A stretch of DNA of 32,000 nucleotides from Bifidobacterium longum subsp. longum JCM 1217 (lineage in GTDB: Bacteria; Actinomycetota; Actinomycetes; Actinomycetales; Bifidobacteriaceae), in the NCBI RefSeq assembly GCF_000196555.1, contig NC_015067.1, positions 1,110,001 to 1,142,000 on the forward strand, in the 5' to 3' direction. Positions 5,308-23,186 of the stretch are shown in pieces. The position numbers and the translations under genes are program-made. Under the pieces are notes generated by a model that saw only the letters and a list, made by a program, of their open reading frames with translations, was not told where the DNA came from and did no database searches. Position 1 is the first letter of the stretch. The number at the start of each line of letters is the position of its first letter.

Positions 5308-5745
5308 CTAATGGCAGTTGGGGCAATACCTAAGATCGCCCTCGTATGCATCGTCCAGGAATGCGCCGCACTCACTGCAACGTTCTTCTTCGCACCAACA
5401 CTTGTTCGACGCCTGTCCGCAGAACGGGCACCTGTACCAGATGTCCTCCGCGATGGCCTCCGGGTCGGCCGGATCGTATTCGTGCGTCCAATCCGGCTCG
5501 GGCATGGAAGTATATTCATACGGGTTATCGCTCCACGCCCTGACAGACACCCTGCCGTCCCCAGCCACCGTGATGCGGGCGAGGCCGGTCTGTTCGCCGT
5601 CGAACTGGTCGCGCAGGCCGCATTCCAGCATGCCGTCGTCCAGTCGCGTCCAGTCGCCCTCGTATTCGAGAGCCTTTTCGATTCCGGCCAGCATGTCGAC
5701 CTTGTCGCTCTTGTCTTCGCCGCACGCGATGCACTCGGTCATCAT
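5308..5745 (-). CDS. hypothetical Cys-rich (zinc-ribbon-like) protein
   Basis: Start MMTECIACG with RBS GGAAAGGAG. The C-terminus reads CPFCG..CWC..CSECG..YCPNCH. Confidence 0.55.
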   Translation of the reverse strand: MMTECIACGEDKSDKVDMLAGIEKALEYEGDWTRLDDGMLECGLRDQFDGEQTGLARITVAGDGRVSVRAWSDNPYEYTSMPEPDWTHEYDPADPEAIAEDIWYRCPFCGQASNKCWCEEERCSECGAFLDDAYEGDLRYCPNCH

Positions 5746-10579: not shown

Positions 10580-10649
10580 GTGCTTCGACGGGATTCGAAC
10601 CCGCATCACCCCAAAAACGGGGCATCCTGACCGATTGAACGACGAAGCC
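10580..10649 (-). tRNA. tRNA-like sequence, probable pseudogene (UUU-type loop)
   Basis: Acceptor GGCTTCG/CGAAGCA with a 1-72 G.A mismatch. The T arm GCGGG-TTCGAAT-CCCGT is good. The anticodon arm is CCCC-GTTTTT-GGGG, giving a 6-nt loop (8 nt if opened), and the variable region is only 3 nt. Confidence 0.35.
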
Positions 10650-10910
10650 ATGTTGCGGATACGATGCTGGAGAGGCGGTTCCGTTCAGGCCACTGAGGTG
10701 CAGGCCTGCGCCTTGACCATCGTTCCACTCCGCCCCAATATGGCAGCGGGCGGGTGGCGGCGTTGACATCGTATTCGCAAGTTGGGTGCGGAAGCGGGCG
10801 CTGCAACGGTTACGGGTCCCAGTTATGAAGAGAACCTACCGTGGCATCGTTCCCTTTCCGGCAGACGTTCGAACCGGATCGGGCGGCGTTGACGCCCGTG
10901 TTTCCGCCAG

Positions 10911-10984
10911 TGCTTTCGCCGGGATTCGAACCCGGACCGGACAGTTCCTTGGATTGTCGCCTCTACCGGTTGGGCCACGAAAGC
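10911..10984 (-). tRNA. non-canonical tRNA, anticodon AAG (Leu-type) with C33 and short variable arm
   Basis: Acceptor GCTTTCG/CGAAAGC, discriminator A. T arm CCGGG-TTCGAAT-CCCGG. Anticodon stem ACAAT/ACTGT has one A.C mismatch. Loop is CCAAGGA. The D arm GCCCAACCGGTAGAGGC is shared with 13032..13104. Confidence 0.45.
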
Positions 10985-11402
10985 ATGCGCAGGCAATCCG
11001 CAGGGATATGCCCGCGCAGTCCACTGTGGATCCGGCCACTCGTGCCGAATCCTGCACTCATGCTTGCGGTGGACGCGCATACTGCAACACGAGGCATGAC
11101 AGGGATCACAGGGGCTGAACCCCCATGCTCCACCGAGACCGTTCCCACATCCTGTGGGTCGGCTGACAAGAAACGCGGTCGCCCGCGTTCCAGGAAACCT
11201 TTCCCGCACTGGGCGGATAGGCTTTATCGGATTCGCACCAACCCTTCCGACAGAGAGCTGTTCGCATCATCCACCCATAGGATGATGGGCGCTGACGATA
11301 TTCACGTGTCCGTCGAACAAACGGAGGCGTGAACCATCGGACACGACCCGCATGGTCATGACTGCCCCGCCGGGAACTCCCAACGGGCATGGAATCGTAT
11401 CG

Positions 11403-11474
11403 AGCGGTGTACGGGAATCGAACCCGCATCATCAGTTTGGAAGACTGAAGCACTGACCATTGTGCTAACACCGC
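11403..11474 (-). tRNA. tRNA-Gly (UCC)
   Basis: Acceptor GCGGTGT/ACACCGC, D stem GCAC/GTGC, anticodon stem TCAGT/ACTGA, loop CTTCCAA, T arm GCGGG-TTCGATT-CCCGT. Confidence 0.85.
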
Positions 11475-11513
11475 AAACAGGAATCCGCACACCGTATCAG
11501 AAGCGGATTCCTT

Positions 11514-11588
11514 AGCGGACGCCACGGGATTCGAACCCGGATCTCCACCCACAGGGGGTGGCGTGCTGCCATTACACCAGCGCCCCGC
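11514..11588 (-). tRNA. tRNA-like sequence, probable pseudogene
   Basis: The D and T arms resemble tRNA-Gly at 15227. The acceptor stem pairs over only 5 bp. The anticodon arm is CCACC-CCCTGTG-GGTGG, with C33 and U37. Confidence 0.3.
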
Positions 11589-11859
11589 ACGGGTCATGAA
11601 CTCCGTGCGTTCGCCTAGCCGTGATTCGTCAGGGTTGAGATCGGCTGGAACTCCGTTGCCCGTATCCGTGGAATGCTTTTTCATTCTGCAGATACCCCTT
11701 TCGTCGTGACGGTCAACTGAGACGACGCGCATCGAACGGCAGCACGGTACCGTGCCACCGTGGGTAGGAGCCATTCGCCGGGTCAGCGTCCGGCCCCTCT
11801 TAACCGTCCAATGGTTCTATTTTTTTAGGGTGCCGGAACCATCAAAGATATGGCACTCG

Positions 11860-11933
11860 TGCATTGCGCTGGAATCGAACCAACGACCTTCCCGTTATGA
11901 GCAGGGTGCTCTAACCGACTGAGCTAGCAATGC
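11860..11933 (-). tRNA. tRNA-Met (CAU), elongator-type or Ile2-type
   Basis: Acceptor GCATTGC/GCAATGC, D arm GCTC-AGTCGGTTA-GAGC, loop CTCATAA, T arm GTTGG-TTCGATT-CCAGC. Confidence 0.85.
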
Positions 11934-11937
11934 AAAG

Positions 11938-12010
11938 TGCCCAAGGCCGGAGTCGGACCGGCTGCGCCCGGTTTAGGAAACCGGCGCTCTATCCGTTGAG
12001 CTACAAGGGC
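11938..12010 (-). tRNA. tRNA-Arg (CCU), acceptor stem defective
   Basis: D arm GCTC/GAGC, anticodon stem CCGGT/ACCGG, loop TTCCTAA. The acceptor GCCCTTG/CTTGGGC has two U.U mismatches. The T loop is TCCGACT. Confidence 0.55.
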
Positions 12011-12105
12011 GTTGCCTCGTAATGCACGAACCGTACGAGGCGCGACGGCGTGAGAGAGAAGAGAAGAGAGAATCCGCTCATTATGGTTGACGGAGTTTTC
12101 GTGCG

Positions 12106-12178
12106 TGCCCTCAACGAGAATCGGACTCGTGGCCTTCCGCTCCGGAGGCGGACGCTCTATCCACTGAGCTACAAGGGC
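12106..12178 (-). tRNA. tRNA-Arg (CCG), copy 1
   Basis: Acceptor GCCCTTG/TGAGGGC (two G.U pairs), anticodon stem TCCGC/GCGGA, loop CTCCGGA, T arm ACGAG-TCCGATT-CTCGT. Identical to 13461..13533. Confidence 0.75.
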
Positions 12179-12283
12179 GTGGCGTCGTTTCGCGGCTTGG
12201 GTGACGCCTGACCCTGTATGTCCGGTACAACAAACATCGAATCGAGTGTAGAGGGAAAACCGATTCGACGTGCTGCCGCCAAG

Positions 12284-12354
12284 CTCCTCCTCCTGGATTC
12301 GAACCAGGACCAAAGGTTCCAAAGACCCGTGTGCTGCCGTTACACCAAGGAGGA
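12284..12354 (-). tRNA. tRNA-Gln (UUG)
   Basis: Acceptor TCCTCCT/AGGAGGA, discriminator G, loop CTTTGGA, T arm CCTGG-TTCGAAT-CCAGG. The anticodon stem has one mismatch. Confidence 0.7.
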
Positions 12355-12473
12355 ATGCGCGCGAACGCATCGGACACGTATGCCCGACTGCGTTCCGCCA
12401 TGCCGATCCAACCCGTTTTTTGCCGGCCGGATTCCAGGCCCTATCCCGTGGCCTATCACTGCAGATCGGCTAG

Positions 12474-12559
12474 CGGATGGTGCGAGAGTCGAACTCGCCA
12501 GGGACTTCCGCCCCAACAGTCTTAGCAGGACTGCGCCTTTGCCGCACGGCCCACCATCC
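12474..12559 (-). tRNA. tRNA-Ser (GCU)
   Basis: Acceptor GGATGGT/ACCATCC, anticodon stem CAGTC/GACTG, loop CTGCTAA, long variable arm, T arm GCGAG-TTCGACT-CTCGC. Confidence 0.85.
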
Positions 12560-12640
12560 ATGCCAGTGTTTGCGATTCAGGGGCACACCGGCCAAACCTC
12601 GATAAACCCCTCATGGGAACGATTTTCATGCGGGGGTTCG

Positions 12641-12725
12641 CGGAGTAGGGAGGATTCGAACCTCCGGGGGCTTGCACCCCTGCTGCTTTCGGGACAGTCG
12701 CATTCGACCGCTCTGCCACCACTCC
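12641..12725 (-). tRNA. tRNA-Ser (CGA) with C33
   Basis: Acceptor GGAGTGG/CTACTCC, long variable arm AGGGGTGCAAGCCCCC, T arm GGAGG-TTCGAAT-CCTCC. The anticodon stem ACTGT/GCAGC is weak. Loop is CCCGAAA. Confidence 0.6.
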
Positions 12726-12775
12726 ACCGATCCACACGAAGGAACAAACTGGTCGACGTATTCGTGCGGATCTCG

Positions 12776-12849
12776 TGCTCCCGGTGGGATTCGAACCCAC
12801 GACCATAAGGTTAGAACTCTTCTGCTCTGGTCCGCTGAGCTACGGGAGC
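12776..12849 (-). tRNA. tRNA-Arg (UCU), weak anticodon stem
   Basis: Acceptor GCTCCCG/CGGGAGC, D arm GCTC/GAGC, T arm GTGGG-TTCGAAT-CCCAC, loop GTTCTAA. Only 3 bp form in the anticodon stem. Confidence 0.6.
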
Positions 12850-13031
12850 AAGGTGGATGCCTACTTCGGTTCAGGAAAAGCGACAACCCTTTTCCAAAGG
12901 AGTAATTCGTTTTTTTTGGAATATTGTTGTTACTTAGGCATCCACGTTTTCCGCCTTCTTTTCGCGCGTGGTCTGCGGATACCACCGTATTTGCGATGTT
13001 GCGCTTACGCATGGCCTTGTGCCATGCGTCG

Positions 13032-13104
13032 TGTTCCCGGCAGGCTTCGAACCTGCGCCGAACGCCGTTTAGGGGCGTGCCTCTGCCGGTTGGGCTACGG
13101 GAAC
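13032..13104 (-). tRNA. non-canonical tRNA, anticodon UAA (Leu-type) with C33 and short variable arm
   Basis: Acceptor GTTCCCG/CGGGAAC, discriminator A, anticodon stem ACGCC/GGCGT, loop CCTAAAC, 5-nt variable loop, T arm GCAGG-TTCGAAG-CCTGC. Confidence 0.5.
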
Positions 13105-13334
13105 CTGGCCGACTGTTCCTCACCAAGGTCGACCTTCGTGGCCGATATCAACCTGAGCATCCCGCAAGAGAGAAGGAAATGGGATGCCGGTCATGGGGAA
13201 GAATGCGGGGCGATGGCTCCGGTCGAACAGCCGAAGAGAATAGAACATCCTTCAAACGACGATCGGAACCGGGTGGGACGGTATCATTCGGCTTGACGAA
13301 TCCGTGAGTAGTAAGGAGCCAAACGATACCGTCC

Positions 13335-13409
13335 TGGCGCGTCGGGTGAGTCTCGACCTCACACCCACCGGTTTTGGAGACCGGTACTCTGCCGTTAAGC
13401 TACCGACGC
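13335..13409 (-). tRNA. tRNA-Trp (CCA), CCA end encoded
   Basis: Acceptor GCGTCGG/CCGACGC followed by G-CCA, anticodon stem CCGGT/ACCGG, loop CTCCAAA, T arm GTGAG-GTCGAGA-CTCAC. Confidence 0.8.
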
Positions 13410-13460
13410 ATGTGGAGCAGGAAGCCGAAGATAGGCAGCGGAATAGCTTCCTGCTCCGAG

Positions 13461-13533
13461 TGCCCTCAACGAGAATCGGACTCGTGGCCTTCCGCTCCGG
13501 AGGCGGACGCTCTATCCACTGAGCTACAAGGGC
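13461..13533 (-). tRNA. tRNA-Arg (CCG), copy 2
   Basis: The 73 nt are identical to 12106..12178. Confidence 0.75.
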
Positions 13534-13624
13534 GATGGCACATTTCGTTCCTTTAACGACGTACGCCTGTGCCGGGCCGTGTTCGGCATGGTCCTCATTG
13601 ATGTCGCTCCGGAGACCATCGCTG

Positions 13625-13670
13625 CAAAAAGAGCGTCCTCCCCACCCGTCCTGAATGACGGATGGAGGGA
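13625..13670 (-). terminator. possible internal terminator or processing hairpin in the array
   Basis: An imperfect GC hairpin (CCCTCCATCCGTC...GACGGGTGGGGAGG) is followed on the minus strand by ACGCTCTTTTTGC. Confidence 0.4.
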
Positions 13671-13862
13671 ATCGGGAGACTGGATTGGGTTTTCACCAGC
13701 AACGTCGAGGACAAACGGGAAGGTTCAGATCCCCTCTGGACGTGCCGCATGTTCGGTCGCAAACCACCCTGCCGGGCCATGCTCGCCTTGGGCGTCCCGT
13801 TTTCGATACGCCTGTTCAGCCACTCCCATGAAAACGACTCATTGATCGGATGAACCGTTTCG

Positions 13863-13934
13863 TGCCTCCGTCTGAAATCGAACCAGCATCCACGGTGCTT
13901 CAGACCGTTGCTCTACCGTTTAAGCCACAGAGGC
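13863..13934 (-). tRNA. tRNA-Phe (GAA)
   Basis: Acceptor GCCTCTG/CGGAGGC, anticodon stem ACGGT/ACCGT, loop CTGAAGC, T loop TTCGATT. The T stem has one mismatch. Confidence 0.75.
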
Positions 13935-14098
13935 GCCGTGCGACGGACCGTCATGGGATCTGGGTTACAGGCCCTTCCCCGGTCCGTCGCACCAGTGTGT
14001 TTCCTTCCCCTGTTTCGCGCGCGGCCGGAGGAAGAAGCTGCCGCAGCCTATCTGATAATAGATTGATGCGCTTATGCATGGCGATGTACCAAGCATCG

Positions 14099-14174
14099 TG
14101 CCCCCCGTGGGATTCGAACCCACGACCACAAACGGATTAAAAGTCCGGTATTCTGACCGCTGAACTAGAGGGGC
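14099..14174 (-). tRNA. tRNA-Lys (UUU)
   Basis: Acceptor GCCCCTC/GGGGGGC, D arm GTTC/GAAT, loop CTTTTAA, T arm GTGGG-TTCGAAT-CCCAC. The variable region is unusually long at 8 nt. Confidence 0.75.
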
Positions 14175-14184
14175 TTTTCTGATA

Positions 14185-15075
14185 TCAAGCAACAGGAAGG
14201 AATTTTGAATTGCTTCCAATGCGCTCAGGGAACCTATCGTCGACGTTGAAAATCGAAACCTTGTTTCGAAGATTTCCTGCGGCGATGACCGCATCATTCA
14301 GATCTCGATATTCACCACCGTAGAATGTTTCCCCTTTTCGGGTTACATTGACTTGCCATCTTTTATCTTTGTTGGACCAGCTCACATTGAGATGGCCACT
14401 CCGTGAATTTGTTGTTGTCGAGATATTTTGACGATTTAATTCTTGGGTGCCGAGTCTCAAGTGATTTGGATTCACACATTTACGATTGCGGCAAATGTGA
14501 TCAATGATCAAGTCGTCTGGTATGAAACCATTGGCGATTCGATATGCGAATCGATGAGAACCGTAACGTTGGCCTCCATATCCGAATACTCCGTAGCCGC
14601 ATCTAAGAGAGCCCGTCCATTCCCAACAGCCGTATGTCATCCGCTGGACGTTAGACCAAAATCTGACAGCGTTCTGTCGATCGACTGGCTCATTGATGCT
14701 TTTACGTCCTCCACCTTCTTGAATGGGAAGATGAGGTAATAGATGATCAGGATTGAAACAAAGCGGATTTCCACAGATGTCATCCATCCAGTTGCAATCT
14801 CCCTCATCACCTTTGAATAAACGATAAGCTATCCTTTTCAGAGGAATGGACTCATTGTTTACATAGATGCACAAATCGGCTCGACTGTTGTCTTTCACGA
14901 TTACACACCCGTTATCCAATTGAGTGGTGAGCTCATCGAAGTCCTCCACAGAGAAAGACTTGTGATGTCTGAGTCTATGTATCGGCTTCCCTCGATACCA
15001 CTGCTGATAATGTCCGGTGCAAAATCCTCTTGCGAGAACCTTTTTGGCGCATCCCGGAAAGGTGCATTGTGCCAT
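14185..15075 (-). CDS. HNH homing endonuclease with AP2-type DNA-binding domain
   Basis: Start MAQCTFPGCAKKV with RBS AAGGAGAAAGGA. Two HNH-type motifs are present: CGNPLCFNPDHL and CRNRKCVNPNHL. The C-terminus NVSWSNKDKRWQVNVTRKGETFYGGEYRDLNDAVIAA is AP2-like. The gene is visibly AT-richer than its surroundings. Confidence 0.75.
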   Translation of the reverse strand: MAQCTFPGCAKKVLARGFCTGHYQQWYRGKPIHRLRHHKSFSVEDFDELTTQLDNGCVIVKDNSRADLCIYVNNESIPLKRIAYRLFKGDEGDCNWMDDICGNPLCFNPDHLLPHLPIQEGGGRKSINEPVDRQNAVRFWSNVQRMTYGCWEWTGSLRCGYGVFGYGGQRYGSHRFAYRIANGFIPDDLIIDHICRNRKCVNPNHLRLGTQELNRQNISTTTNSRSGHLNVSWSNKDKRWQVNVTRKGETFYGGEYRDLNDAVIAAGNLRNKVSIFNVDDRFPERIGSNSKFLPVA

Positions 15076-15226
15076 ATATTCCTTTCTCCTTGGGTATAAG
15101 AAAAAGAAAGCATGGAGTGTTTCGTTCCGTTTACGGTGTCCACCCACTTCGAGGTCGTGTTCGTTCATGCGTCTCCGGATTCCTCGGCACGAAAATCAAG
15201 GAATAATAGATATTGCATCCGGATAG

Positions 15227-15298
15227 AGCGGATGACGGGGTTCGAACCCGCGGTCTCCTGCTTGGGAAGCAGGCGTGCTGCCACTGCACCACATCCGC
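15227..15298 (-). tRNA. tRNA-Gly (CCC)
   Basis: Acceptor GCGGATG/CATCCGC, D stem GTGC/GCAC, anticodon stem CCTGC/GCAGG, loop TTCCCAA, T arm GCGGG-TTCGAAC-CCCGT. Confidence 0.85.
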
Positions 15299-15420
15299 GT
15301 CGCGGGGGACGGGCCGGCCGGCCCGCTGTCTCGCGTATTCCATTCCGGGGGCGCGCCGTCTTGACATGACGTCGTCCCTCGGAATGTCCGCGCTTACACG
15401 CGGCGGCATGCCGCGTGTCG

Positions 15421-15492
15421 TGGAGCCGGCGGGGTTCGAACCCGCGACCTTCCCGTTGCGGACGGGACGCCCTGCCACTGGGCGACGGCCCC
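15421..15492 (-). tRNA. tRNA-Ala (CGC) with C33
   Basis: Acceptor GGGGCCG/CGGCTCC includes the G3.U70 Ala identity pair. Anticodon stem TCCCG/CGGGA, loop TCCGCAA, T arm GCGGG-TTCGAAC-CCCGC. Confidence 0.7.
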
Positions 15493-15496
15493 GAAG

Positions 15497-15569
15497 CGCC
15501 CCTGACCCGATTCGAACGGGCGACACCCGGATCCGGAATCCGGTGCTCTGTCCCCTGAGCTACAAGGGC
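15497..15569 (-). tRNA. tRNA-Arg (CCG), divergent third copy
   Basis: Acceptor GCCCTTG/CAGGGGC, D arm GCTC/GAGC, anticodon stem CCGGA/TCCGG, loop TTCCGGA, T arm GCCCG-TTCGAAT-CGGGT. It lies 4 nt from tRNA-Ala. Confidence 0.8.
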
Positions 15570-15762
15570 GTGCATCCGCCATGCGACGGCATGCGTCCCC
15601 GCACTGGGCGGGGGGGATTAGGGCGGGATCATGGCGCTGGCATGGTCGCGGACGGGAGAATAAAAGAAGAAAGAACCCGTCTCGCATGCCATCGTTCCCG
15701 CACGCGCGGAGAGAAGAGTCCGGCGTCGCGTGCGGGCGGCGTTCACGCCATGAGCCGCTTCG

Positions 15763-15835
15763 AGCCCCGGGCCGGACACGATCCGGCGACCTTCCGCTTA
15801 CGAGGCGGACGCTCTACCGGTTGAGCTACCGGGGC
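15763..15835 (-). tRNA. tRNA-Thr (CGU) with unusual T loop
   Basis: Acceptor GCCCCGG/CCGGGGC, D arm GCTC/GAGC, anticodon stem TCCGC/GCGGA, loop CTCGTAA, T arm GCCGG-ATCGTGT-CCGGC. Confidence 0.7.
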
Positions 15836-15964: not shown

Positions 15965-16010
15965 CGCGCCATGGAGGAGTCGAACCTCCGTCTACGGTTT
16001 TGGAGACCGT
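15965..16010 (-). pseudogene. tRNA-Trp (CCA) 3' portion, disrupted by IS21
   Basis: The minus strand reads ...CAAAACCGT AGAC GGAGG-TTCGACT-CCTCC ATGGCGC G. It joins the fragment at 18600..18632 across the duplicated GAGACCGT. Confidence 0.7.
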
Positions 16011-16121
16011 GTGTTTTAGCAAGTTGGCGTCCGCTTTGTGAGCGGTGTTTTTCCGCAGTGTAGGCAGCGGGTTTTCCGCAGGGTGTGCGGTATCGGCCGC
16101 TGCCTGTCTGCGTTGTGTTGG

Positions 16122-16907
16122 TTATTTGGTCATGAGGGCGTGTTCGCTTCGGTAGGAGCGGCCCTCGAATCTGATGAGCCGTCCGTGGTGGACGGTGCGG
16201 TCGATGAGGGCGGCGGCCATGTTCTTGTCGCCGAGCACGCGTCCCCATCCGCTGAATTCGATGTTGGTGGTGTAGATGATGCTCCTTGTCTCGTAGGAAT
16301 CGGAAATGATCTGGAAGAGGAGCCTGCTGCCCTCCTCGTCTATGGGCAGGTAGCCGAACTCGTCGATGATGAGAAGTCGGGCCTTGCCGATGCTCGCGAG
16401 TTCCCGGTCGAGCCGGTTCTCCTGCTGGGCGCGGCGCAGACGCATGAGCAGTCCGGTCGCGGTGAAGAAGCGCACCGGGACGCCCCGCTCGCAGGCGAGC
16501 CGTCCGATCGCGATGGCCAGGTGGCTCTTGCCGGTGCCGACGGGCCCGTAGAGCACGAGGTCCTCGCATCCGGCGACGAAGTCGAGGTTCTCGAGCTGCG
16601 CGCGCCCCCAGTCGGCGGGCATCTTCAGGTTGGTCCAGTCATAGCCGTCGAGGGTCTTGTCGGCGGGGAAGCCGGCCTGTTTGAGCAGGCGCAGGCGTTT
16701 GGATCGCTCGCGCGAGTCGAGTTCGGCCGTGAACCATCGTTCGATGAAGTCGAGCTGGTTGGGCGTGGCCTCGGCGAGCGTGCCCGCGAGCACGCTGCGT
16801 GTCAGGGTCAGGCTGCGGCTCATCTTCAGGATCCTCTCGCTCTTCTCGGTCGTGGACGCGCGACGGCGGCGGGTCTCCGGGATCACCGGATCGGGTCTGA
16901 CGCTCAC
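16122..16907 (-). CDS. istB: IS21 helper ATPase IstB
   Basis: GTGA overlap with the istA stop. Walker A GPVGTGKSH, Walker B LLIIDEFGY, C-terminal DRTVHHG. Confidence 0.9.
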   Translation of the reverse strand: MSVRPDPVIPETRRRRASTTEKSERILKMSRSLTLTRSVLAGTLAEATPNQLDFIERWFTAELDSRERSKRLRLLKQAGFPADKTLDGYDWTNLKMPADWGRAQLENLDFVAGCEDLVLYGPVGTGKSHLAIAIGRLACERGVPVRFFTATGLLMRLRRAQQENRLDRELASIGKARLLIIDEFGYLPIDEEGSRLLFQIISDSYETRSIIYTTNIEFSGWGRVLGDKNMAAALIDRTVHHGRLIRFEGRSYRSEHALMTK

Positions 16908-18406
16908 CGTTCTTCCCCTCCGTCGTCCGTGCCGGTGATGAACCGGTCGTAGCCGCTCAGGTCGGGCTCCTCGATCCCGCCGGGGTATTCCCACTCGCCG
17001 TCGCGCATGCGCAACGCGATAGGGGTGAGCGAGTCCGCGTGCAGGCCCATGTCCCTGTTCGAGCGCAGGATCTCGCCGCACGCCTGCATCGCGGGATCGA
17101 ACCCGGCCGCCCGGCACGCGTCCCCGATCGCTTTGAGGCTCTCCCTCAACGTCTTTTCGTCCATGGAATCAAGCCACGCGCGTATATCGTCGGGCACGTC
17201 CGGGCGGATCGAGCTTTCCCGCCACGCGCGGGGTTTGACCGCGAGCCGGGGAAGCACGAGCGCGGGATCCTCCACATTGCGCGACCGTCCGTACTGTCTG
17301 GGATACTCCGCGAAGAGCTCGCCGGTGGCGGGCGAGGTGAGCGTGACCGTGTCCCACCGGATCGCGGCCAATACCCTGGAACGCGCCGAATCGGGGCCGG
17401 CGAGGTACCGGTTCGAGTCGATGTCGACCAGCCCGTACTTGTCGGCCGTCCGGCTTTCCCAGCGAACCGGGTCGAACGCCGTGGACGGCAACGGCATCAA
17501 CGCGGCCCTCTCCTCGTCGAACACCTCGGCCACGGGCACGTCCAGCAACCTCGGGCAATACGAGTCCCTGGCGAGCCCGTCGCACCGCTCCAGCAGGAGA
17601 CGGCTCAACTGCCCATACGATTCCGCGCGCATGGGCGGCACCATGAGATTGCGCCGCAAAAACCCGACCGCGTTCTCCACGCTGCCCTTCTCGTTGCCCG
17701 AATACGGGTTGCAGAACCGGACCTCGAGCCGGTAATGCGCCACGAACGCGGAGAACACCCCGGTCAACGCGACCTCGCCCTTCGCGTTGCGCCGGCCGGC
17801 ACCGGTCGCGTTGTCCATCACGATCACGGGAGGAACACCCCCGATATGCTCGAACACGAGCATCAGGCCATGGCACAGACACTCCGCGTTCTCGCCCGGC
17901 AACGCCACGCACAACCGCATGTTCGAATACGGCAACGAGACCACCAGGCAATGCACGTCCGCCATCTCGCCAGCGATCCGGGCCCGGGCCACGCCGAAAT
18001 CGACCTGCATGCTGCCCGCCGCCCACTCGAGCCGCACGTACCCCTCGCGATCCGGCACGCCGCGGTTCGCCTCGCGCCACCGGTGCACGTAACGCATCGT
18101 GGTCGAATACTCGCCGTCGTAATCCGTCTCCGCCAGCAGACGGTCGTGCACGCGCCTGATCGTGTGCCGCTGCTTCCTGGGCAGCAGACGATCGGCCTCC
18201 AGCCACTCGTCCACCAGATGCGCGTACGGGTCGATCTTCGACCCGTACCTGCGATCCGCCTTCGGCTTGGGCGAGCAATCCTCCATATCCGCGTACTTCG
18301 CGACCGTCCCGCGATCCACGTGAAGACGCCGCGCTATCTGCGCGCGCGACATTCCCTGCCGGTCGAGTCTCCTGATATCTTGCACAATGGGCATCGGTAT
18401 CGCCAT
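16904..18406 (-). CDS. istA: IS21 transposase IstA
   Basis: Start MAIPMPIVQDIRRL with RBS GGGAAGGAAAGGAAC. It has an N-terminal HTH (MSRAQIARRLHVDRGTV) and a DDE-type core (VDFG...VMDNATGAG...SGNEKGSVEN). Confidence 0.9.
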   Translation of the reverse strand: MAIPMPIVQDIRRLDRQGMSRAQIARRLHVDRGTVAKYADMEDCSPKPKADRRYGSKIDPYAHLVDEWLEADRLLPRKQRHTIRRVHDRLLAETDYDGEYSTTMRYVHRWREANRGVPDREGYVRLEWAAGSMQVDFGVARARIAGEMADVHCLVVSLPYSNMRLCVALPGENAECLCHGLMLVFEHIGGVPPVIVMDNATGAGRRNAKGEVALTGVFSAFVAHYRLEVRFCNPYSGNEKGSVENAVGFLRRNLMVPPMRAESYGQLSRLLLERCDGLARDSYCPRLLDVPVAEVFDEERAALMPLPSTAFDPVRWESRTADKYGLVDIDSNRYLAGPDSARSRVLAAIRWDTVTLTSPATGELFAEYPRQYGRSRNVEDPALVLPRLAVKPRAWRESSIRPDVPDDIRAWLDSMDEKTLRESLKAIGDACRAAGFDPAMQACGEILRSNRDMGLHADSLTPIALRMRDGEWEYPGGIEEPDLSGYDRFITGTDDGGEER

Positions 18407-18599
18407 GTTCCTTTCCTTCCCGAGCGCCGGCCGGCGGCAACCGGCCGAATCAAAACCGATTGGCAACTCGGGAATATACAGGCGGCGGCACCGATGCCTA
18501 TCACATCACCGGGAAACGATGACGACACCGGGGAAAACCATCAGCCCACACTACGGAAAAACACTGCCGAACCTGTCGAACAAACATTGAAGCAAAACA

Positions 18600-18632
18600 G
18601 AGACCGTCGGGCTGCCGCCGTCCCGATGGCGC
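18600..18632 (-). pseudogene. tRNA-Trp (CCA) 5' portion, disrupted by IS21
   Basis: The minus strand reads GCGCCAT CG GGAC GGCGGCA GCCC G ACGGTCTC. The acceptor complements ATGGCGC at 15966..15972. Confidence 0.65.
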
Positions 18633-18952
18633 GTTCATTGTTTCCGCTCTTCGGTTTTCAACCATGCCATGCCGGCCGTGTCCGCGGCGGCATGGCATGG
18701 TATGCGTCTCCGGACGGCAGGCCGACGGAACGCGTTCCGCCGGCCGAGTGGTTCCGGGCGGCTTCGCTCCGCCGGCCTGTCCGATTGATTCGGGCCGTTC
18801 CGCCGGATCGGGCTACGAAACCGACCGGAATCCCGTCGTCTCATGACCAGGTGTCATCCCGGCTTCCACCGTTCGCCGTCGATCCAATGGGACTGGCCTG
18901 ACAGGCGGATCAAACCGCCTGTCGTCGATCCGCCTGTTTGCGGCCAGGCGGA

Positions 18953-19037
18953 TGGTGGTGGCGGGAGGACTCGAACCTCCGGTGTTTCTCTGTCGCAGAG
19001 TTACAGTCTGCTGCCGTCGCCGCTGGGCCACGCCACC
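18953..19037 (-). tRNA. tRNA-Tyr (GUA), CCA end encoded
   Basis: Acceptor GGTGGCG/CGCCACC followed by A-CCA, anticodon stem GCAGA/TCTGC, loop CTGTAAC, long variable arm, T arm GGAGG-TTCGAGT-CCTCC. Confidence 0.8.
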
Positions 19038-19124
19038 GGTGCATCGCTTTTGCCCGTCACGGTGCGATGCGTACCGTGCCCGGTTCATCTGTGCCCGCAA
19101 GCTCATGGGAGATGGATCGGGTCG

Positions 19125-19497
19125 TGGAGCTGCCGGGAATCGAACCCGGGTCTGGCCTGCCGTCAACCATTGCTTGCCGTCACGTGCGTATCCGACGCTT
19201 GACGCTCATCCGTGGACGGGTGCGTTCGGCGAACCCGCACGGCTTGTAGACGATGTTCGTATGCTGGCCGGGCGAATCCATCGTCCGACTGTCCGACCAG
19301 TCCGATTCGAAGTTCTCCGGCTTTGACCCGTTAATCGGCAATGGGATCAAAGCCGGGTTTCACGCCGCGAGGGTGAAACGGGAAGAAGAAACGGTGTTGG
19401 CGTTCGTTCTTGTGGCAAGGTTGATGACGGTTGTCCCTGCCGGCCTCCGGCACGTAGCGAATGGTCTCCGGCAGGCCATCGAAAGCCTGTCAGCCCC
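19125..19497 (-). ncRNA. ssrA: tmRNA (SsrA)
   Basis: The 5' end is GGGGCTGACAGGCTTTCGATGG. The 3' end is ...CCGGGTTCGATTCCCGGCAGCTCCA. Together they form an Ala-type acceptor GGGGCTG/CAGCTCC with G3.U70. An internal reading frame GCC AAC ACC GTT TCT TCT TCC CGT TTC ACC CTC GCG GCG TGA encodes ANTVSSSRFTLAA. Length is 373 nt. Confidence 0.8.
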
Positions 19498-19736
19498 GTG
19501 ACATGGGTCGGATGGCGTGAACATCAGCCATCCGACCCATGTCTTCAATGCCGCCATCTTGCAGGGGTGGCGTCTGGTCCAAGGTCTTGTCCTCACGCCC
19601 ATGCGGGTATGAGTCGCCTTGGACAGGAATGTTTCTGATGTCGCTCTTCGGTTTTCAAGTCTCGTCGCCGACCGTCCGTGCGGTGGCATGCGACGGTATG
19701 CGTCCCCGGTCGCGGCGATCCCCTATGCGGGGGCGT

Positions 19737-20067
19737 GTATGCATTCCGGCCGGCCTGTATGCATCCGTATGCATCCGGGGATGCATACATCTTCTCTTCC
19801 CGTTTCGGCTTGGTTCCAACGTTCCGGGGATGGTCCGGGGGCGTGTATGCATTGTATGCATCATTCCCTTATAGGGGATTCGGGAAAAAGGAAGGAAACC
19901 CCTTATATTGATGCATACAATGCATACAAGAGAAAGGAATTCTGTTTTTCCCTTTATATATAAGGGTTTTCGGGCTTTTTCCAAGCCTTTTTTGTATGCA
20001 TCCCCGGATGCATACAGATGCATACATGCATACAAGACGGCCGGAAGAACTTCACAATGTTGTAAAG
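19737..20067. repeat. 331-bp iteron-rich direct repeat, copy 1 (candidate replication origin)
   Basis: Over 90 percent identical by eye to 20259..20590. It contains 12 copies of GTATGCAT/ATGCATAC in both orientations and an AT-rich core AGGAATTCTGTTTTTCCCTTTATATATAAGGG. Confidence 0.75.
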
Positions 20068-20135
20068 TCCGCGCATGCGGCTCCACGGCATCGCGAACCC
20101 CCCGGGGAGCCCGGCGAAACGGATCGGAGGATCGC

Positions 20136-20245
20136 TTGACGTCCTCCCCTCGGCTGAAGCCGGGGGATTCCTCCCATCCTGACGATGGGAGGAATCCCTC
20201 CCCACGCCTGAAGGCGGGGGCACCCTCACGGCAAAACGGTCGGGG
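20136..20245 (-). mobile_element. orphan IS200/IS605 right-end / omega-RNA-like module
   Basis: The minus strand ends GGAATCCCCCGGCTTCAGCCGAGGGGAGGACGTCAA, matching the right end at 2062..2100. This is preceded by a 14-bp perfect hairpin GGATTCCTCCCATC-GTCA-GATGGGAGGAATCC and by CCCCGCC-TTCA-GGCGTGGGG. No tnpB is adjacent. Confidence 0.55.
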
Positions 20246-20258
20246 CGGGCATCGGGGC

Positions 20259-20590
20259 TGTATGCATTCCGGTTCGCGTGTATGCATCCGTATGCATCCG
20301 GGGATGCATACGTCTTTTCTTTCCGTTTCGGCTTGTTTCCAACGTTCCGGGGATGGTCCGGGGGCGTGTATGCATTGTATGCATCATTCCCTTATAGGGG
20401 ATTCGGGAAAAAGGAAGGAAACCCCTTATATTGATGCATACAATGCATACAAGATAAAGGAATTCTGTTTTTTCCTTTATTTATAAGGGTTTTCGGGCTT
20501 TTTCCGGGCTTTTTCTGTATGCATCCCCGGATGCATACAGATGCATACACGCATACAAAACGGGCCGGAAAACTTTACAATATTGTAAAG
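20259..20590. repeat. 331-bp iteron-rich direct repeat, copy 2
   Basis: See copy 1. The offset between copies is 522-523 bp. Copy 2 ends 52 bp upstream of the primase-helicase start. Confidence 0.75.
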
Positions 20591-20642
20591 GCCGGGACCA
20601 TGCCCGTCCGGCCCCGCCCCCGCGTGACGCATACATGCGCGC

Positions 20643-23186
20643 ATGATCGAAAACCAGTACGGCCGTCCCGGCATCACGGGCCCGGCCACCCCCGGGCACG
20701 CGGACGGGGCGTTCCTCGCCCGCGTCGCCGACCAGCACGTGCTGCTCAGAAACCCGACGGGCGTGACCGGCGTATGCAACACCATCCACCCCATGGCCGG
20801 CGACCCCGCGACCGACATGCCCGGCATCCCCATGCTGCGGAGCCTCGTGCAGAGGGACGGGGCGAGCACATGGACATGGACCGATCCGAGCGGCCTCATG
20901 CCCATGTGGGCGATCCGCATGATCAGCGAGATCGTGTGCCCCGACCCCGACCTGCGCGTCCTGCCCGACCCGCAGGCGCCCGGCAAGGGCATCCTCTACC
21001 GGCGCGTCCTGCCCGACCACACCGTCGAACGCGCGCCCAGCCGATGGGCGCCCATCGGACCCGTGCGCATCGCCTACGGCGGCTCCAAGGCCAAGGACGA
21101 CCAATTGGACGGGGACGACGGATGGGTCAAGGACTCGCTCCTCCTCGCCGGACAGACCATACGCCGCGGATGCAGCTTCATGTGCACGGACGGGGAGATC
21201 CGCTTCGAACACGACCCCGTGTCCGGCGCGTGGACGCGCACCGAGACCCGATCCGGCGTCACCCGCTCCTGGACCGGCGCGAAAGACCTCGAATGCCGGG
21301 AACCGGATTTCAGGACGGCCACGCTCCGGGAGACGACGCCGAACCGGGTCGACGAGCCCATGACCTACACGGTGGAGACCGGATGCACGTGCGAACAGGC
21401 CGCGACGCTCGCGAACGAGGCCGGATGGATCCTCGACCAGTGGACCGGCCAGGACACGGACAGCACCCTCAACCTGCAACGCTCGCTCGCCGCCCCGTTC
21501 CTCCGCAGCCATCCGGAATGCGCGTACGTGTACCAGGGGCCGGGCGGCACCGGCAAAAGCACGCTCGCCAAGGACCTCATGGAGCATCTCGGCGACCAGG
21601 CCACGACCATGAGCCTCGACCTGCTCGCCCAGCCGACCGCCATGAGCGCCGAAAACAAGATGGGCGACCTGATGAGCCACCTGCTCGCCCTGTCCGACGA
21701 CTACGATCCGACCCACGGACGGTTCGAGAAGAGCCTGCCGAACCTGAAGACCCTCCTGACCGGGCTCCTCCCCTTCTCCGCGCGCCGCCAGGGCGAGAAC
21801 AGCGTGGACGGCATGCCGCAAAGCACGCATCTGATCACCACGAACTACCATCTGCCCGTGTCCAGCTCCGAGGCCGAACAACGCCGCTTCGCGTTCAGCA
21901 CCATCGCCTCGCAGACGACGCGCGCCCGCCACTATCTCCCGTTCCGCCGCAAACACGGTTTCTGGCCGTTCATGCTGGTCGGCGCGATCACATGGCTGAA
22001 GATCGGCGACCGGCAATGCCGGTCCGTCGCGTTCGTCGACCTGGAAAGCCTGTCCGACATGGAGGTCGCCGCCATCCGCAGCGTGCTCGACACGGGCGTC
22101 GTGATCCCCGACCCCGGCATGCGCGTCAACTGGAAGAACATCGGCCTGGTGCGCACCAGCACGCGTATCGGCAGCGAGGACGGGCGTCCGCACACCGCGT
22201 ACCGGCCCGCCCCCGAGGGCGACGGCCTGCACGCCGTATGGAAGGCGTGCGCGGCCGCCGTGTCCGGCATGCCCGCCGACGAGCCCGAGATCCGGCCCGT
22301 CCCCGACCGGGATCTCAAGGTCACGGACCCGGACGGGTGGGCGGACATGATCCGGGAGGCGGATCCGCGGATCTTCCCCTGCCATGCGGACAAGAGCCCG
22401 TCCAGCGACGTGCCCCACCATTCGTGGAAGGACGCGTGCCAGGATCCGCGGGTGGACATGTCGCACCGGATCGACCCGTCGAAGCCGATCTACGGGACGA
22501 CCGTCGCCGACGACTACATGTGGGTGGACCTCGACTGCCACAAGCAGGATCAGACGTCCGGCTGGGAGCAGATCCAGACGGACGTCGGCCCGTACGGGAC
22601 GCCGCTCCTGCCGCGCACGTTCGCGGTGCGCACCCCGTCCGGCGGCGTCCACCTCCTCTACCACATCCCTGACGGGGCGCGCCTGAAATCCAGGACGCAC
22701 AACGGAGGCCAGATCGACTTCAAAATCGGCCGCGACGGCTACGTGGTCATGGGCGGGTCCGTCCTGCCCGACGGGCGGCGCTACACGCCGATAGACCGGC
22801 CCGAGGATCGGATCCCCGACCTGTCCGACGCGTTCCTGCGCTGGGCGGAACGCGTCGACGCGACCGACAAACCCCGTCGCCCCGCCCCCGCGCGGACGGC
22901 GGCCGCGCCGGCGGGCGGCGCGTACGATCCGCTGGCCGCGTTCGACCTGCCCTCCCCCGGCGTGGCCGGGGGCCCGGAGGGGGAGCCGGACATGAGCCCC
23001 ATCCCCGAGGGGCGGCGCAACGACACGCTCTACCGGTGGGGGTACGGGCGTTGGAAGAACCATCCCGAGGACGGGGAGCGGATCGCGCGGGACATCATGG
23101 AACGCGGACGGATCAGCGGGCTGCCCGATCGCGAGACGCTTCAGATCGTGAAAAGCGTGAGAAGTTCGGTGGAAGGAGACCGATGA
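20643..23186 (+). CDS. replicative primase-helicase: SF3/D5-type P-loop domain, then Prim-Pol, then PriCT-1
   Basis: 847 aa. Walker A YVYQGPGGTGKST lies at about nt 21527, with LALSDDYD and LITTNY following. Prim-Pol motifs are FPCHADKSP, VDLDCHK, RTPSGGVHLLYH and IDFKIGRDGYVVMGGSVLPDGRRYT (about nt 22370-22790). The PriCT-1-like sequence is GRRNDTLYRWGYG...LQIVKSV. No clear SD precedes 20643, so the start is uncertain. Confidence 0.8.
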   Translation: MIENQYGRPGITGPATPGHADGAFLARVADQHVLLRNPTGVTGVCNTIHPMAGDPATDMPGIPMLRSLVQRDGASTWTWTDPSGLMPMWAIRMISEIVCPDPDLRVLPDPQAPGKGILYRRVLPDHTVERAPSRWAPIGPVRIAYGGSKAKDDQLDGDDGWVKDSLLLAGQTIRRGCSFMCTDGEIRFEHDPVSGAWTRTETRSGVTRSWTGAKDLECREPDFRTATLRETTPNRVDEPMTYTVETGCTCEQAATLANEAGWILDQWTGQDTDSTLNLQRSLAAPFLRSHPECAYVYQGPGGTGKSTLAKDLMEHLGDQATTMSLDLLAQPTAMSAENKMGDLMSHLLALSDDYDPTHGRFEKSLPNLKTLLTGLLPFSARRQGENSVDGMPQSTHLITTNYHLPVSSSEAEQRRFAFSTIASQTTRARHYLPFRRKHGFWPFMLVGAITWLKIGDRQCRSVAFVDLESLSDMEVAAIRSVLDTGVVIPDPGMRVNWKNIGLVRTSTRIGSEDGRPHTAYRPAPEGDGLHAVWKACAAAVSGMPADEPEIRPVPDRDLKVTDPDGWADMIREADPRIFPCHADKSPSSDVPHHSWKDACQDPRVDMSHRIDPSKPIYGTTVADDYMWVDLDCHKQDQTSGWEQIQTDVGPYGTPLLPRTFAVRTPSGGVHLLYHIPDGARLKSRTHNGGQIDFKIGRDGYVVMGGSVLPDGRRYTPIDRPEDRIPDLSDAFLRWAERVDATDKPRRPAPARTAAAPAGGAYDPLAAFDLPSPGVAGGPEGEPDMSPIPEGRRNDTLYRWGYGRWKNHPEDGERIARDIMERGRISGLPDRETLQIVKSVRSSVEGDR

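Follow-up and report, generated by a model that had tools for sequence, protein, structure and literature searches.

Inverted-site cassettes at a primase-helicase gene and elsewhere on Bifidobacterium megaplasmids: candidate control elements that may double as origins

The 32,000-nt stretch of Bifidobacterium longum subsp. longum JCM 1217 analyzed here (contig NC_015067.1, positions 1,110,001 to 1,142,000; hereafter the window, to which all coordinates refer unless a locus is named) encodes a primase-helicase of 847 amino acids (aa), preceded by a field of closely repeated short sites at 19737-20590. The original prediction took this field for a duplicated origin of replication of the iteron type. 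The question is whether it is one origin that is present twice at a unique place or a local sample of something more widespread. From our analysis, a plasmid-wide control element, possibly doubling as an origin, is more likely than a single duplicated origin. The repeated units are cassettes of a previously undescribed group of gut Bifidobacterium megaplasmids that carry 6 to 11 or more copies each, which makes the finding more interesting than a one-off duplication.

Architecture of the two-copy field

The field consists of two 331-bp copies, M1 (19737-20067) and M2 (20260-20590), whose starts lie 523 bp apart and which match in 311 of 332 alignment columns (93.7% identity), as expected from the predicted duplication. 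The 8-mer GTATGCAT occurs 24 times in the window against 0.38 occurrences expected by chance, and none of 100 shuffles reached this number. Not all 24 belong to the field as had been claimed: 23 exact copies lie within 19737-20548 and one at 5344. The figure of 12 sites per repeat is right for M1 (12 exact sites between 19737 and 20033), whereas M2 has 11 exact sites and a twelfth with one mismatch (ACGCATAC, 20549-20556). A further degenerate site (GTATGCGT) is found upstream of M1 at 19697-19704. Within the field the sites are 8-10 bp long, stand in both orientations, and are spaced by 9, 10, or 14-15 bp and by some longer gaps.

The direct and inverted pairs described originally are present, and the inverted ones form two nested sets of arms in each copy: outer arms of 36-37 nt (95-97% complementary) and inner arms of 20 nt (100% complementary) that stand 45 nt apart (TGTATGCATTGTATGCATCA and TGATGCATACAATGCATACA). 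Each copy is, therefore, a quasi-palindrome, with centers near 19888 and 20411. The conserved core of M1 (19844-19928) comprises TGTATGCATTGTATGCATCA, the 45-nt spacer, and TGATGCATACAATGCATACA, and that of M2 lies at 20367-20451. AT-rich stretches do flank the sites, as had been noted: the inner spacer has a GC content of 42% and the 65-bp tract to its right (19929-19993 in M1) of 34%, compared to 63% for the window. Beside the 8-mer there is a site of another type, the 18-bp palindrome CTTTACAATATTGTAAAG, which contains TACAAT on both strands and forms the right end of M2 (20573-20590); M1 has a degenerate version of it (CTTCACAATGTTGTAAAGT, 20050-20068). Including the latter and GTATGCGT, the first cassette copy extends over 19697-20068. 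As predicted, 52 nt separate the end of M2 from the open reading frame (ORF) of the primase-helicase (20643-23186, plus strand). No DnaA box (TTATCCACA or TTTTACACC, up to one mismatch allowed) was found within 19600-20650, and no Rfam RNA family matched within the field itself. Hairpins inside the cassette that resemble terminators were rejected as such because they are not conserved between M1 and M2, and a reading of the cassette as a single-stranded-DNA promoter (Frpo-like) was dropped because the segments between the arms are not complementary.

Conservation at the primase-helicase gene and dispersal around the plasmids

We then compared the region upstream of the primase-helicase gene across relatives (retrieved loci are denoted by L numbers). 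In every relative for which upstream DNA was fetched, one to five cassettes stand directly before the gene, down to a protein identity of 33%, and this holds for all nine lineages looked at. Two modules are found in B. felsineum (L005, 64% protein identity), five in B. myosotis (L006, ∼57%), and two in an IMG/VR contig (L027, 36%); the metagenome loci have four (L007, 47%), two in inverted arrangement (L014, 40%), three (L010/L011, 35%), and two (L012, 33%). The rest of the ∼20 kb fetched per relative contains no copy of that lineage's commonest site word. The site core, GTAT[G/T]CA, is constant while its flanks vary by lineage (e.g., TGTATGCATcc in the window, ttGTATTCAg in L007, tTGTATGCAgT in L010, and CCGTATGCAc in L027). 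Likewise, the geometry of the core, i.e., two sites at a 9-bp pitch, ∼45 nt, and two inverted sites (55-65 bp start to start), is kept in L006, L007, L010, L012, and L027, even where the modules are unalignable; in lineages whose primases are 33-64% identical, the core and the site core are retained and the rest of the cassette has diverged beyond alignment. The primase-helicase is the only protein common to all lineages within 10 kb of the arrays. The predicted association of the array with this gene is, hence, seen in every relative examined, and this lineage-wide link is the strongest support for the original idea of an origin.

Several of these loci have features of their own. In B. myosotis (a 315-kb contig), the primase gene is preceded by 5.4 kb without called genes (L006 4589-10001), of which ∼3.2 kb are the five cassettes, two of them inverted relative to the other three. 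Another word, AATCGTTG, is also repeated there; it lies within GGAATCGTTGG-type repeats and is interleaved with GTATGCATC sites. Directly downstream of the primase-helicase gene in one relative (L007 13177-17152 and L008 4570-8545) is a type I-E Cascade set (Cse1, Cse2, Cas7, Cas5, and Cas6e), with no Cas3 visible in the fetched DNA. Four independent short-read contigs from Logan (L001-L004) with a 97%-identical primase all start within the cassette at precisely the same distance from the gene, 147 bp upstream of it, which fits repeat-induced breaks in assembly.

The cassettes are not confined to the primase-helicase gene. A 186,745-bp IMG/VR contig that encodes an identical 847-aa protein has six, one at the primase gene and five at ∼53, 114, 118, 142, and 175 kb, which are 91-97% identical to one another and have exactly equal site spacing. 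Similarly, a 104,906-bp contig with a 36%-identical primase has at least six cassettes of its own type, two at the gene and four elsewhere. Scanning metagenomes with the core pattern returned 79 loci, in only 12 of which the primase gene was within the sequence obtained; one 191-kb contig has at least 11 cores, and clusters of two to four cassettes also occur away from the primase gene. Between divergent (-,+) genes lie 20 of 30 scorable cassette sites, as against roughly 25% expected, a count that rests on crude gene calls (filtered by GC content at third codon positions, GC3) and on metagenome loci that are not independent of one another. The neighboring genes are diverse (e.g., N6 and C5 methylases, an RNase T-like exonuclease, an RNA ligase, a nucleotidyltransferase, and an SNF2 helicase). 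The palindrome CTTTACAATATTGTAAAG is doubled in the dispersed copies L019, L020, L025, and L118 and is absent from pMP7017, a characterized megaplasmid of B. breve. Our literature searches (for the motif, for primases of Bifidobacterium megaplasmids, and for DUF5906 plasmids) yielded no description of the cassette or of this replicon type in Bifidobacterium.

Dispersal of this kind could also be the work of a selfish, non-autonomous repeat resembling a miniature inverted-repeat transposable element (MITE), bound at its terminal inverted repeats by a transposase and devoid of a host function. The 36-37-nt outer arms would be such termini, the copies within an element are 91-97% identical, their number varies at a given locus, and IS607 and TnpB elements adjoin some of them. 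We give this explanation little credence. No target-site duplication was seen at eight distinct aligned flanks, no matching transposase was found, and the placement of the copies is strongly non-random, with a preference for intergenic regions between divergent genes and a copy before the primase gene in every case. The one move that could be observed was that of a whole double unit between existing cassette loci, which resembles gene conversion and not transposition. Moreover, core geometry and site core are conserved across unalignable lineages, and a conserved internal core implies selection on more than the ends. The core geometry and site core retained in diverged modules, together with this placement, give good support to the view that the cassette is an array under selection for the presumed binding of a protein.

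The 847-aa protein itself comprises an N-terminal region (residues 1-235), a D5-like superfamily 3 (SF3) helicase (∼240-545), a Prim-Pol domain (∼560-740), and a C-terminal helical bundle (792-845). Pfam matches were to Prim-Pol and DUF5906, and the Walker A motif GPGGTGKS is invariant across the relatives. The AlphaFold model is confident (pLDDT 85), and with it Foldseek retrieved the poxvirus D5/E5 and African swine fever virus (ASFV) PrimPol proteins (E 1e-7). The adjacent gene is, thus, of the replication type that had been predicted, an SF3 helicase with a C-terminal Prim-Pol. Residues 1-235 have a confidently predicted fold (pLDDT 89) with no significant Foldseek match in PDB or BFVD, the best being a tandem AP2 domain (E 0.3). 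Sequence searches of PDB with the protein and its family profile gave nothing useful. The family is small and mostly bifidobacterial. No homologue of the protein was found in any Bifidobacterium plasmid of PLSDB, and none of the field or the protein in BLAST searches of PLSDB and phages, where only the leader of the transfer-messenger RNA (tmRNA) gene and the spacer between the cassettes matched. Scans of the GTDB genome collection with a protein pattern and with the core DNA pattern both returned nothing. A 909-aa protein encoded beside pilin genes in pMP7017, at the position of the primase, is not homologous (hhalign probability 0.1%).

Control element, origin, or transfer and partition site

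What the cassettes do can be approached through pMP7017, which has a dispersed 34-bp promoter/transcription-factor motif in 19 copies, which overlap the -10 elements of promoters driving 56 genes and are regarded as likely binding sites of a transcription factor (Dineen et al., 2024, PMC10832533). We counted 22 copies of GTCCACATAA, a part of this motif, in the complete pMP7017 sequence (L142-L145), beyond the 19 published. They lie mostly 30-40 nt upstream of start codons and are oriented with the gene; one of them faces the tmRNA gene and is 15 nt away from where repB is annotated to start. At three positions, a cassette stands where pMP7017 has the motif. The complete pMP7017 has no cassette and only three scattered GTATGCAT, and the 34-bp motif is absent from the window-type loci. 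M1 replaces the motif upstream of the tmRNA gene (19122-19497, minus strand, transcribed leftward and away from M1). On the 186.7-kb contig, the cassette at ∼53 kb adjoins an RNA-ligase operon with 93% nucleotide identity to its motif-bearing pMP7017 counterpart, and the cassette at ∼175 kb adjoins an orthologue (51% amino-acid identity, E 5e-64) of a nucleotidyltransferase whose gene bears the motif in pMP7017. The exonuclease beside another cassette (L021) is not clearly an orthologue of the pMP7017 exonuclease, with only a short DnaQ-like motif in common.

These observations, together with the dispersal, the divergent flanks, and the skew result described below, make a bidirectional promoter-operator cassette, used plasmid-wide and bound by a plasmid protein, the best reading of the sequences, and we give it nearly an even chance. 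Each 331-bp unit would be one copy of a dispersed cis-acting cassette, on which a sequence-specific protein encoded by the plasmid may bind the ∼12 sites cooperatively. The sole candidate for the binder that is conserved with the arrays is the N-terminal domain of the primase-helicase. Where the two sites of a double site meet, they form a -10-like hexamer, TACAAT, which faces away from the 45-nt center on either side; back-to-back promoters may accordingly be placed inside the cassette, with these hexamers within the double sites, and occupancy of the sites would set the expression of both flanking operons. In the window, the targets of this control would be the primase-helicase operon to the right and the tmRNA/tRNA array to the left; other copies would act on the methylase, RNA-repair, and nuclease operons, the whole set being the presumed counterpart of the pMP7017 regulon. 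The copies proximal to the primase gene could in addition be a replication start, which is the main rival or an overlapping hypothesis; a promoter-operator and an origin are not mutually exclusive.

Several points weigh against the promoter-operator reading. A scan of the cassette for standard promoter consensus sequences passed none, the TACAAT hexamers have weak -35 partners only, and TAnnnT is an automatic outcome of the site sequence at a 9-bp pitch. Three to five whole cassettes stand in tandem without genes between them in L006, L007, L010, and L064, which exceeds what a simple promoter needs and would better fit titration, an origin, or a centromere. Furthermore, no regulator other than the primase-helicase itself was found, and a cassette before every primase-helicase gene examined, with this as the sole shared protein, fits binding by an initiator equally.

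Such an initiator is the essence of the alternative in which the cassettes are one or more origins: the helicase/Prim-Pol protein would bind GTATGCAT, perhaps via its N-terminal domain, assemble head-to-head on the inverted double sites, melt the low-GC center, and prime DNA synthesis, with the dispersed copies acting as auxiliary origins or as sinks for copy control. Besides the cassettes directly upstream of the gene in the nine lineages and the fact that no other protein is shared near the arrays, the alternative draws on the change of the site flanks between lineages and on the tandem multiplicity, which fits titration or handcuffing. Moreover, beside the tmRNA/tRNA array the locus takes the place that RepB and its iterons have in pMP7017, and none of the loci retrieved when IMG/VR was scanned for RepB relatives was on the 186.7-kb contig. 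Origins served by SF3 helicase-primases (P4, SaPI, and SV40 type) combine an SF3 initiator with inverted pairs of short sites around an easily melted center next to the initiator gene; the window has the SF3 fold, and its inverted site pairs surround tracts of 34-42% GC. A switch in strand asymmetry, which would also be expected of such an origin, was not seen at any cassette.

In pMP7017, the cumulative GC skew reaches its global minimum at kb 119, which coincides exactly with the known RepB origin, so GC skew is informative in this plasmid family. Across the field in the window, the cumulative skew falls steadily without a switch, and the 186.7-kb contig has no negative-to-positive change at its six cassettes; the skew check suggested with the original prediction, therefore, speaks against an origin, only mildly so because skew is weak in the sampled 82 kb of window-type pieces. 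The N-terminal domain has no recognizable DNA-binding fold, DnaA boxes are lacking in the region scanned, and the full copies, 6-11 per plasmid, are mostly at divergent promoters. We know of no bacterial replicon with 6-11 full origin copies. In the characterized plasmid pRN1, whose replication protein likewise joins Prim-Pol and helicase, the DNA that is required besides the promoter is found downstream of the gene (PMC4234260). Considering both sides, we regard origin function as somewhat unlikely.

More specifically, a classical iteron origin has 17-22-bp tandem repeats in one orientation, an adjacent winged-helix Rep protein (RepA, pi, TrfA, or RepB type), an AT-rich unwinding region, and a single locus on the replicon. 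Of the iteron-type origin that had been proposed, the AT-rich tract beside the repeats and the link to a primase-helicase stand, whereas the sites are 8-10 bp and two-way, and neither a winged-helix Rep nor a DnaA box accompanies them. Duplication of a whole origin at a unique locus is not supported, for like cassettes are dispersed plasmid-wide, with 6 to 11 or more per plasmid, mostly between divergent operons, many of them at operon heads as in a promoter/operator regulon. The label "duplicated iteron origin" overstates the sequence evidence. By analogy with baculovirus homologous regions or herpesvirus oriS/oriL, both functions could coincide, the cassettes being multi-copy origins and bidirectional promoters of a ∼190-kb plasmid on which a D5-like helicase-primase reads GTATGCAT via a DNA-binding domain of new fold; we consider this combination distinctly unlikely.

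Arrays of short direct and inverted repeats in several promoter regions are also reminiscent of centromere-like partition sites (e.g., the omega sites of pSM19035, the KorB operators of RK2, and the dispersed centromeres of N15), at which a ParR-, omega-, or KorB-type protein would segregate the low-copy megaplasmid and repress nearby promoters. Tandem expansion, which seems to be tolerated here, would suit them as well. Nevertheless, no ParA- or ParB-type gene is found next to any cassette examined or among the window ORFs scanned, the lone weak ParA-like (CbiA) gene is ∼6 kb from the array in L010, and the invariable link to the primase-helicase gene would be left unexplained; partition is, to our judgement, very improbable. 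Still less do we favor a transfer locus (clt) such as the TraB recognition sequences of Streptomyces plasmids, in which the element's FtsK/SpoIIIE-type translocase would recognize the 8-bp repeats. The motif length agrees and relatives encode ∼1100-aa proteins with FtsK/SpoIIIE domains, but the translocase genes lie away from the arrays, the sites lack polarity and are symmetric, and pMP7017-type plasmids have FtsK/SpoIIIE proteins without cassettes, which leaves this explanation hardly credible.

Gain of the second cassette, plasmid setting, and relation to known systems

How the window came to have two cassettes can be traced in part. In each of five close relatives whose sequence reaches far enough upstream, one cassette stands at -383 to -102 relative to the start codon, and only the window has a second, at -906 to -617. 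M2 is the counterpart of the single cassette, being 99% identical to L022 from 20260 onward. The 866-bp double unit, including an identical spacer, recurs with 96.9% identity in L118, an independent metagenome contig of another plasmid, at the nucleotidyltransferase locus and not at the primase gene. The right flank of M1 (20069-20138) matches that of a dispersed copy of the 186.7-kb relative (L021), and M1 shares this flank and diagnostic variants with the ∼118-kb cassette of that contig. Taken together, the double unit elsewhere and the shared flank and variants point to gene conversion or recombination among dispersed cassettes, and the second cassette of the window is a recent, lineage-specific gain, most likely by gene conversion from another double-unit locus. 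An assembly artefact was rejected, since the copies are 6% diverged, their flanks differ, and the double unit was found independently. Nor is the arrangement unusual as had been supposed, considering the two to five cassettes at the primase gene of distant relatives and the clusters of two to four elsewhere.

The spacer between the copies (20069-20253) contains an inverted pair of ∼45-nt segments resembling a TnpB right end, at about 20130-20240, and a hairpin with 15-nt arms at 20164-20198. One segment matches the DNA directly 3' of the TnpB gene of a B. longum plasmid (94% over 49 nt), and the earlier description as a remnant of an insertion sequence (IS) end is, hence, fair. CTCGGCTGAAGCCGGGGGATTCCTCC and its surroundings (window 20130-20240; L016 3001-3049), just 3' of the TnpB gene in the B. 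longum plasmid, also match plasmids of a haloarchaeon (Natronorubrum) and of Mycobacterium avium (91-97% over ∼40 nt); judging by this, the region may be a conserved scaffold of a TnpB guide RNA or an element end. An IS607-type element (L020 829-2627), which encodes a serine-recombinase TnpA with a MerR-type helix-turn-helix (HTH) and TnpB, has a dispersed cassette ∼190 bp to its left; considered along with the remnant in the window spacer, it suggests that such elements tend to land beside cassettes.

To the left of the field, an HNH endonuclease gene and an IS21 element accompany the tmRNA gene and 21 tRNA genes; genes for pilin, sortase, and InlB-repeat proteins follow the primase-helicase on its right. 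Parts of ∼9.2-19.66 kb are ∼90% identical to stretches of B. longum megaplasmids of the pMP7017 family, and the leader at 19500-19659 is conserved with pMP7017-type plasmids. Homology stops near 19665, beyond which pMP7017 continues with its promoter motif and then repB. RepB and the 20-mer iterons are the experimentally defined replicon of pMP7017 (Dineen et al., 2021, PMC8313286). The stop of homology at the position of repB and the negative PLSDB and RepB scans indicate that the window represents a sister lineage with an exchanged replication module, i.e., by its sequence, a second megaplasmid lineage in which a D5-like helicase/Prim-Pol protein appears to replace RepB for replication.

The tRNA array occupies 10580-15835 and 18953-19037 on the minus strand. 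One of its members (12775-12849, anticodon CTA) would read the amber stop codon and was labeled "Pyl" by ARAGORN, and a tRNA-like gene at 10580-10649 received an odd two-base anticodon call. ARAGORN missed the tmRNA gene, which Rfam detected (93.9 bits, E 1e-35); a tmRNA has been published for pMP7017 at the equivalent place. Inside the array, in a stretch of 46-47% GC, is a homing-endonuclease-like HNH gene (14185-15168, minus strand, 327 aa). The IS21-family element (16122-18466, minus strand), inserted between the tRNA array and tRNA-Tyr, encodes an IstA-like transposase of 520 aa (rve, Mu-transposase C-terminal) followed by an IstB-like ATPase of 331 aa. The 186.7-kb relative lacks the whole segment 15969-19641 with the IS21 element, tRNA-Tyr, and tmRNA. 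A link between IS21 and the repeated site was rejected, as no GTATGCAT occurs in 15969-19641.

To our knowledge, pMP7017-type plasmids are the only large conjugative plasmids characterized in Bifidobacterium and a source of cloning vectors. The second lineage recurs in human-gut metagenome assemblies (79 loci in one scan), and in it the replication protein and the plasmid-wide control motif appear to have been exchanged together. The binder of the cassette, once identified, would reveal either a master regulator of replication, anti-restriction, and RNA-repair genes or the way in which a virus-like helicase-primase recognizes an origin. Conceivably, Bifidobacterium genetics could also gain from it a portable control element of compact size or a minimal replicon. 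On the practical side, the cassettes break short-read assemblies.

Among known systems, the 34-bp motif regulon of pMP7017 is the nearest: it belongs to the sister lineage (∼90% nucleotide identity over the tRNA/tmRNA region), is plasmid-specific and dispersed upstream of many operons, and occupies equivalent positions at the tmRNA gene, the RNA-ligase operon, and the nucleotidyltransferase operon. The motif, however, is a single element of 34 bp with a fixed orientation, ∼30-40 nt ahead of the start codon, whereas the cassette is a 330-bp quasi-palindrome of ∼12 sites with a low-GC center and an 18-bp palindrome, would work two ways, and is often in tandem; the two have no sequence similarity. 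Baculovirus homologous regions (hrs) and the oriS and oriL of herpes simplex virus are enhancer or promoter elements as well as origins. They, too, are dispersed imperfect palindromes of repeated protein-binding sites between divergent genes on a large DNA element, but belong to eukaryotic viruses with different proteins, and the comparison is one of analogy only.

With the RepB origin of pMP7017, the window shares the map place next to the tmRNA/tRNA array and the combination of repeats, an AT-rich region, and an adjacent replication gene. RepB is a dimeric iteron-binding protein of ∼330 aa with seventeen 20-mer repeats downstream of its gene (PMC8313286). Here, in contrast, an SF3 helicase/Prim-Pol protein is accompanied by sites of 8-10 bp that are bidirectional, upstream, and dispersed, and GC skew marks the RepB origin and not the cassettes. 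A further single large plasmid replication protein combining Prim-Pol and SF3 helicase is ORF904 of pRN1; its replicon needs two elements in cis, a promoter region of 64 bp before the gene and 166 bp behind it, and the abstract of the pRN1 study describes no dispersed cassettes (PMC4234260). The helicase-then-Prim-Pol order of the 847-aa protein is the reverse of that in poxvirus D5 and ORF904. In phage P4, the alpha primase-helicase binds both ori and crr, the latter being two direct 120-bp repeats; its binding domain is C-terminal, and so is that of SaPI Rep. P4 and the SaPIs resemble the present case in a mobile-element helicase-primase and in short direct and inverted sites near the initiator gene and at more than one place; they differ in that P4 has two loci as against 6-11 cassettes, in that no DNA-binding fold is recognized in the 847-aa protein, and in the reversed order of its domains, helicase before Prim-Pol. 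In essence, we class the cassettes with the dispersed cis-acting control elements known from large plasmids, with a minority chance that one plasmid here has multiple origins of viral type, something that would be new for bacteria.

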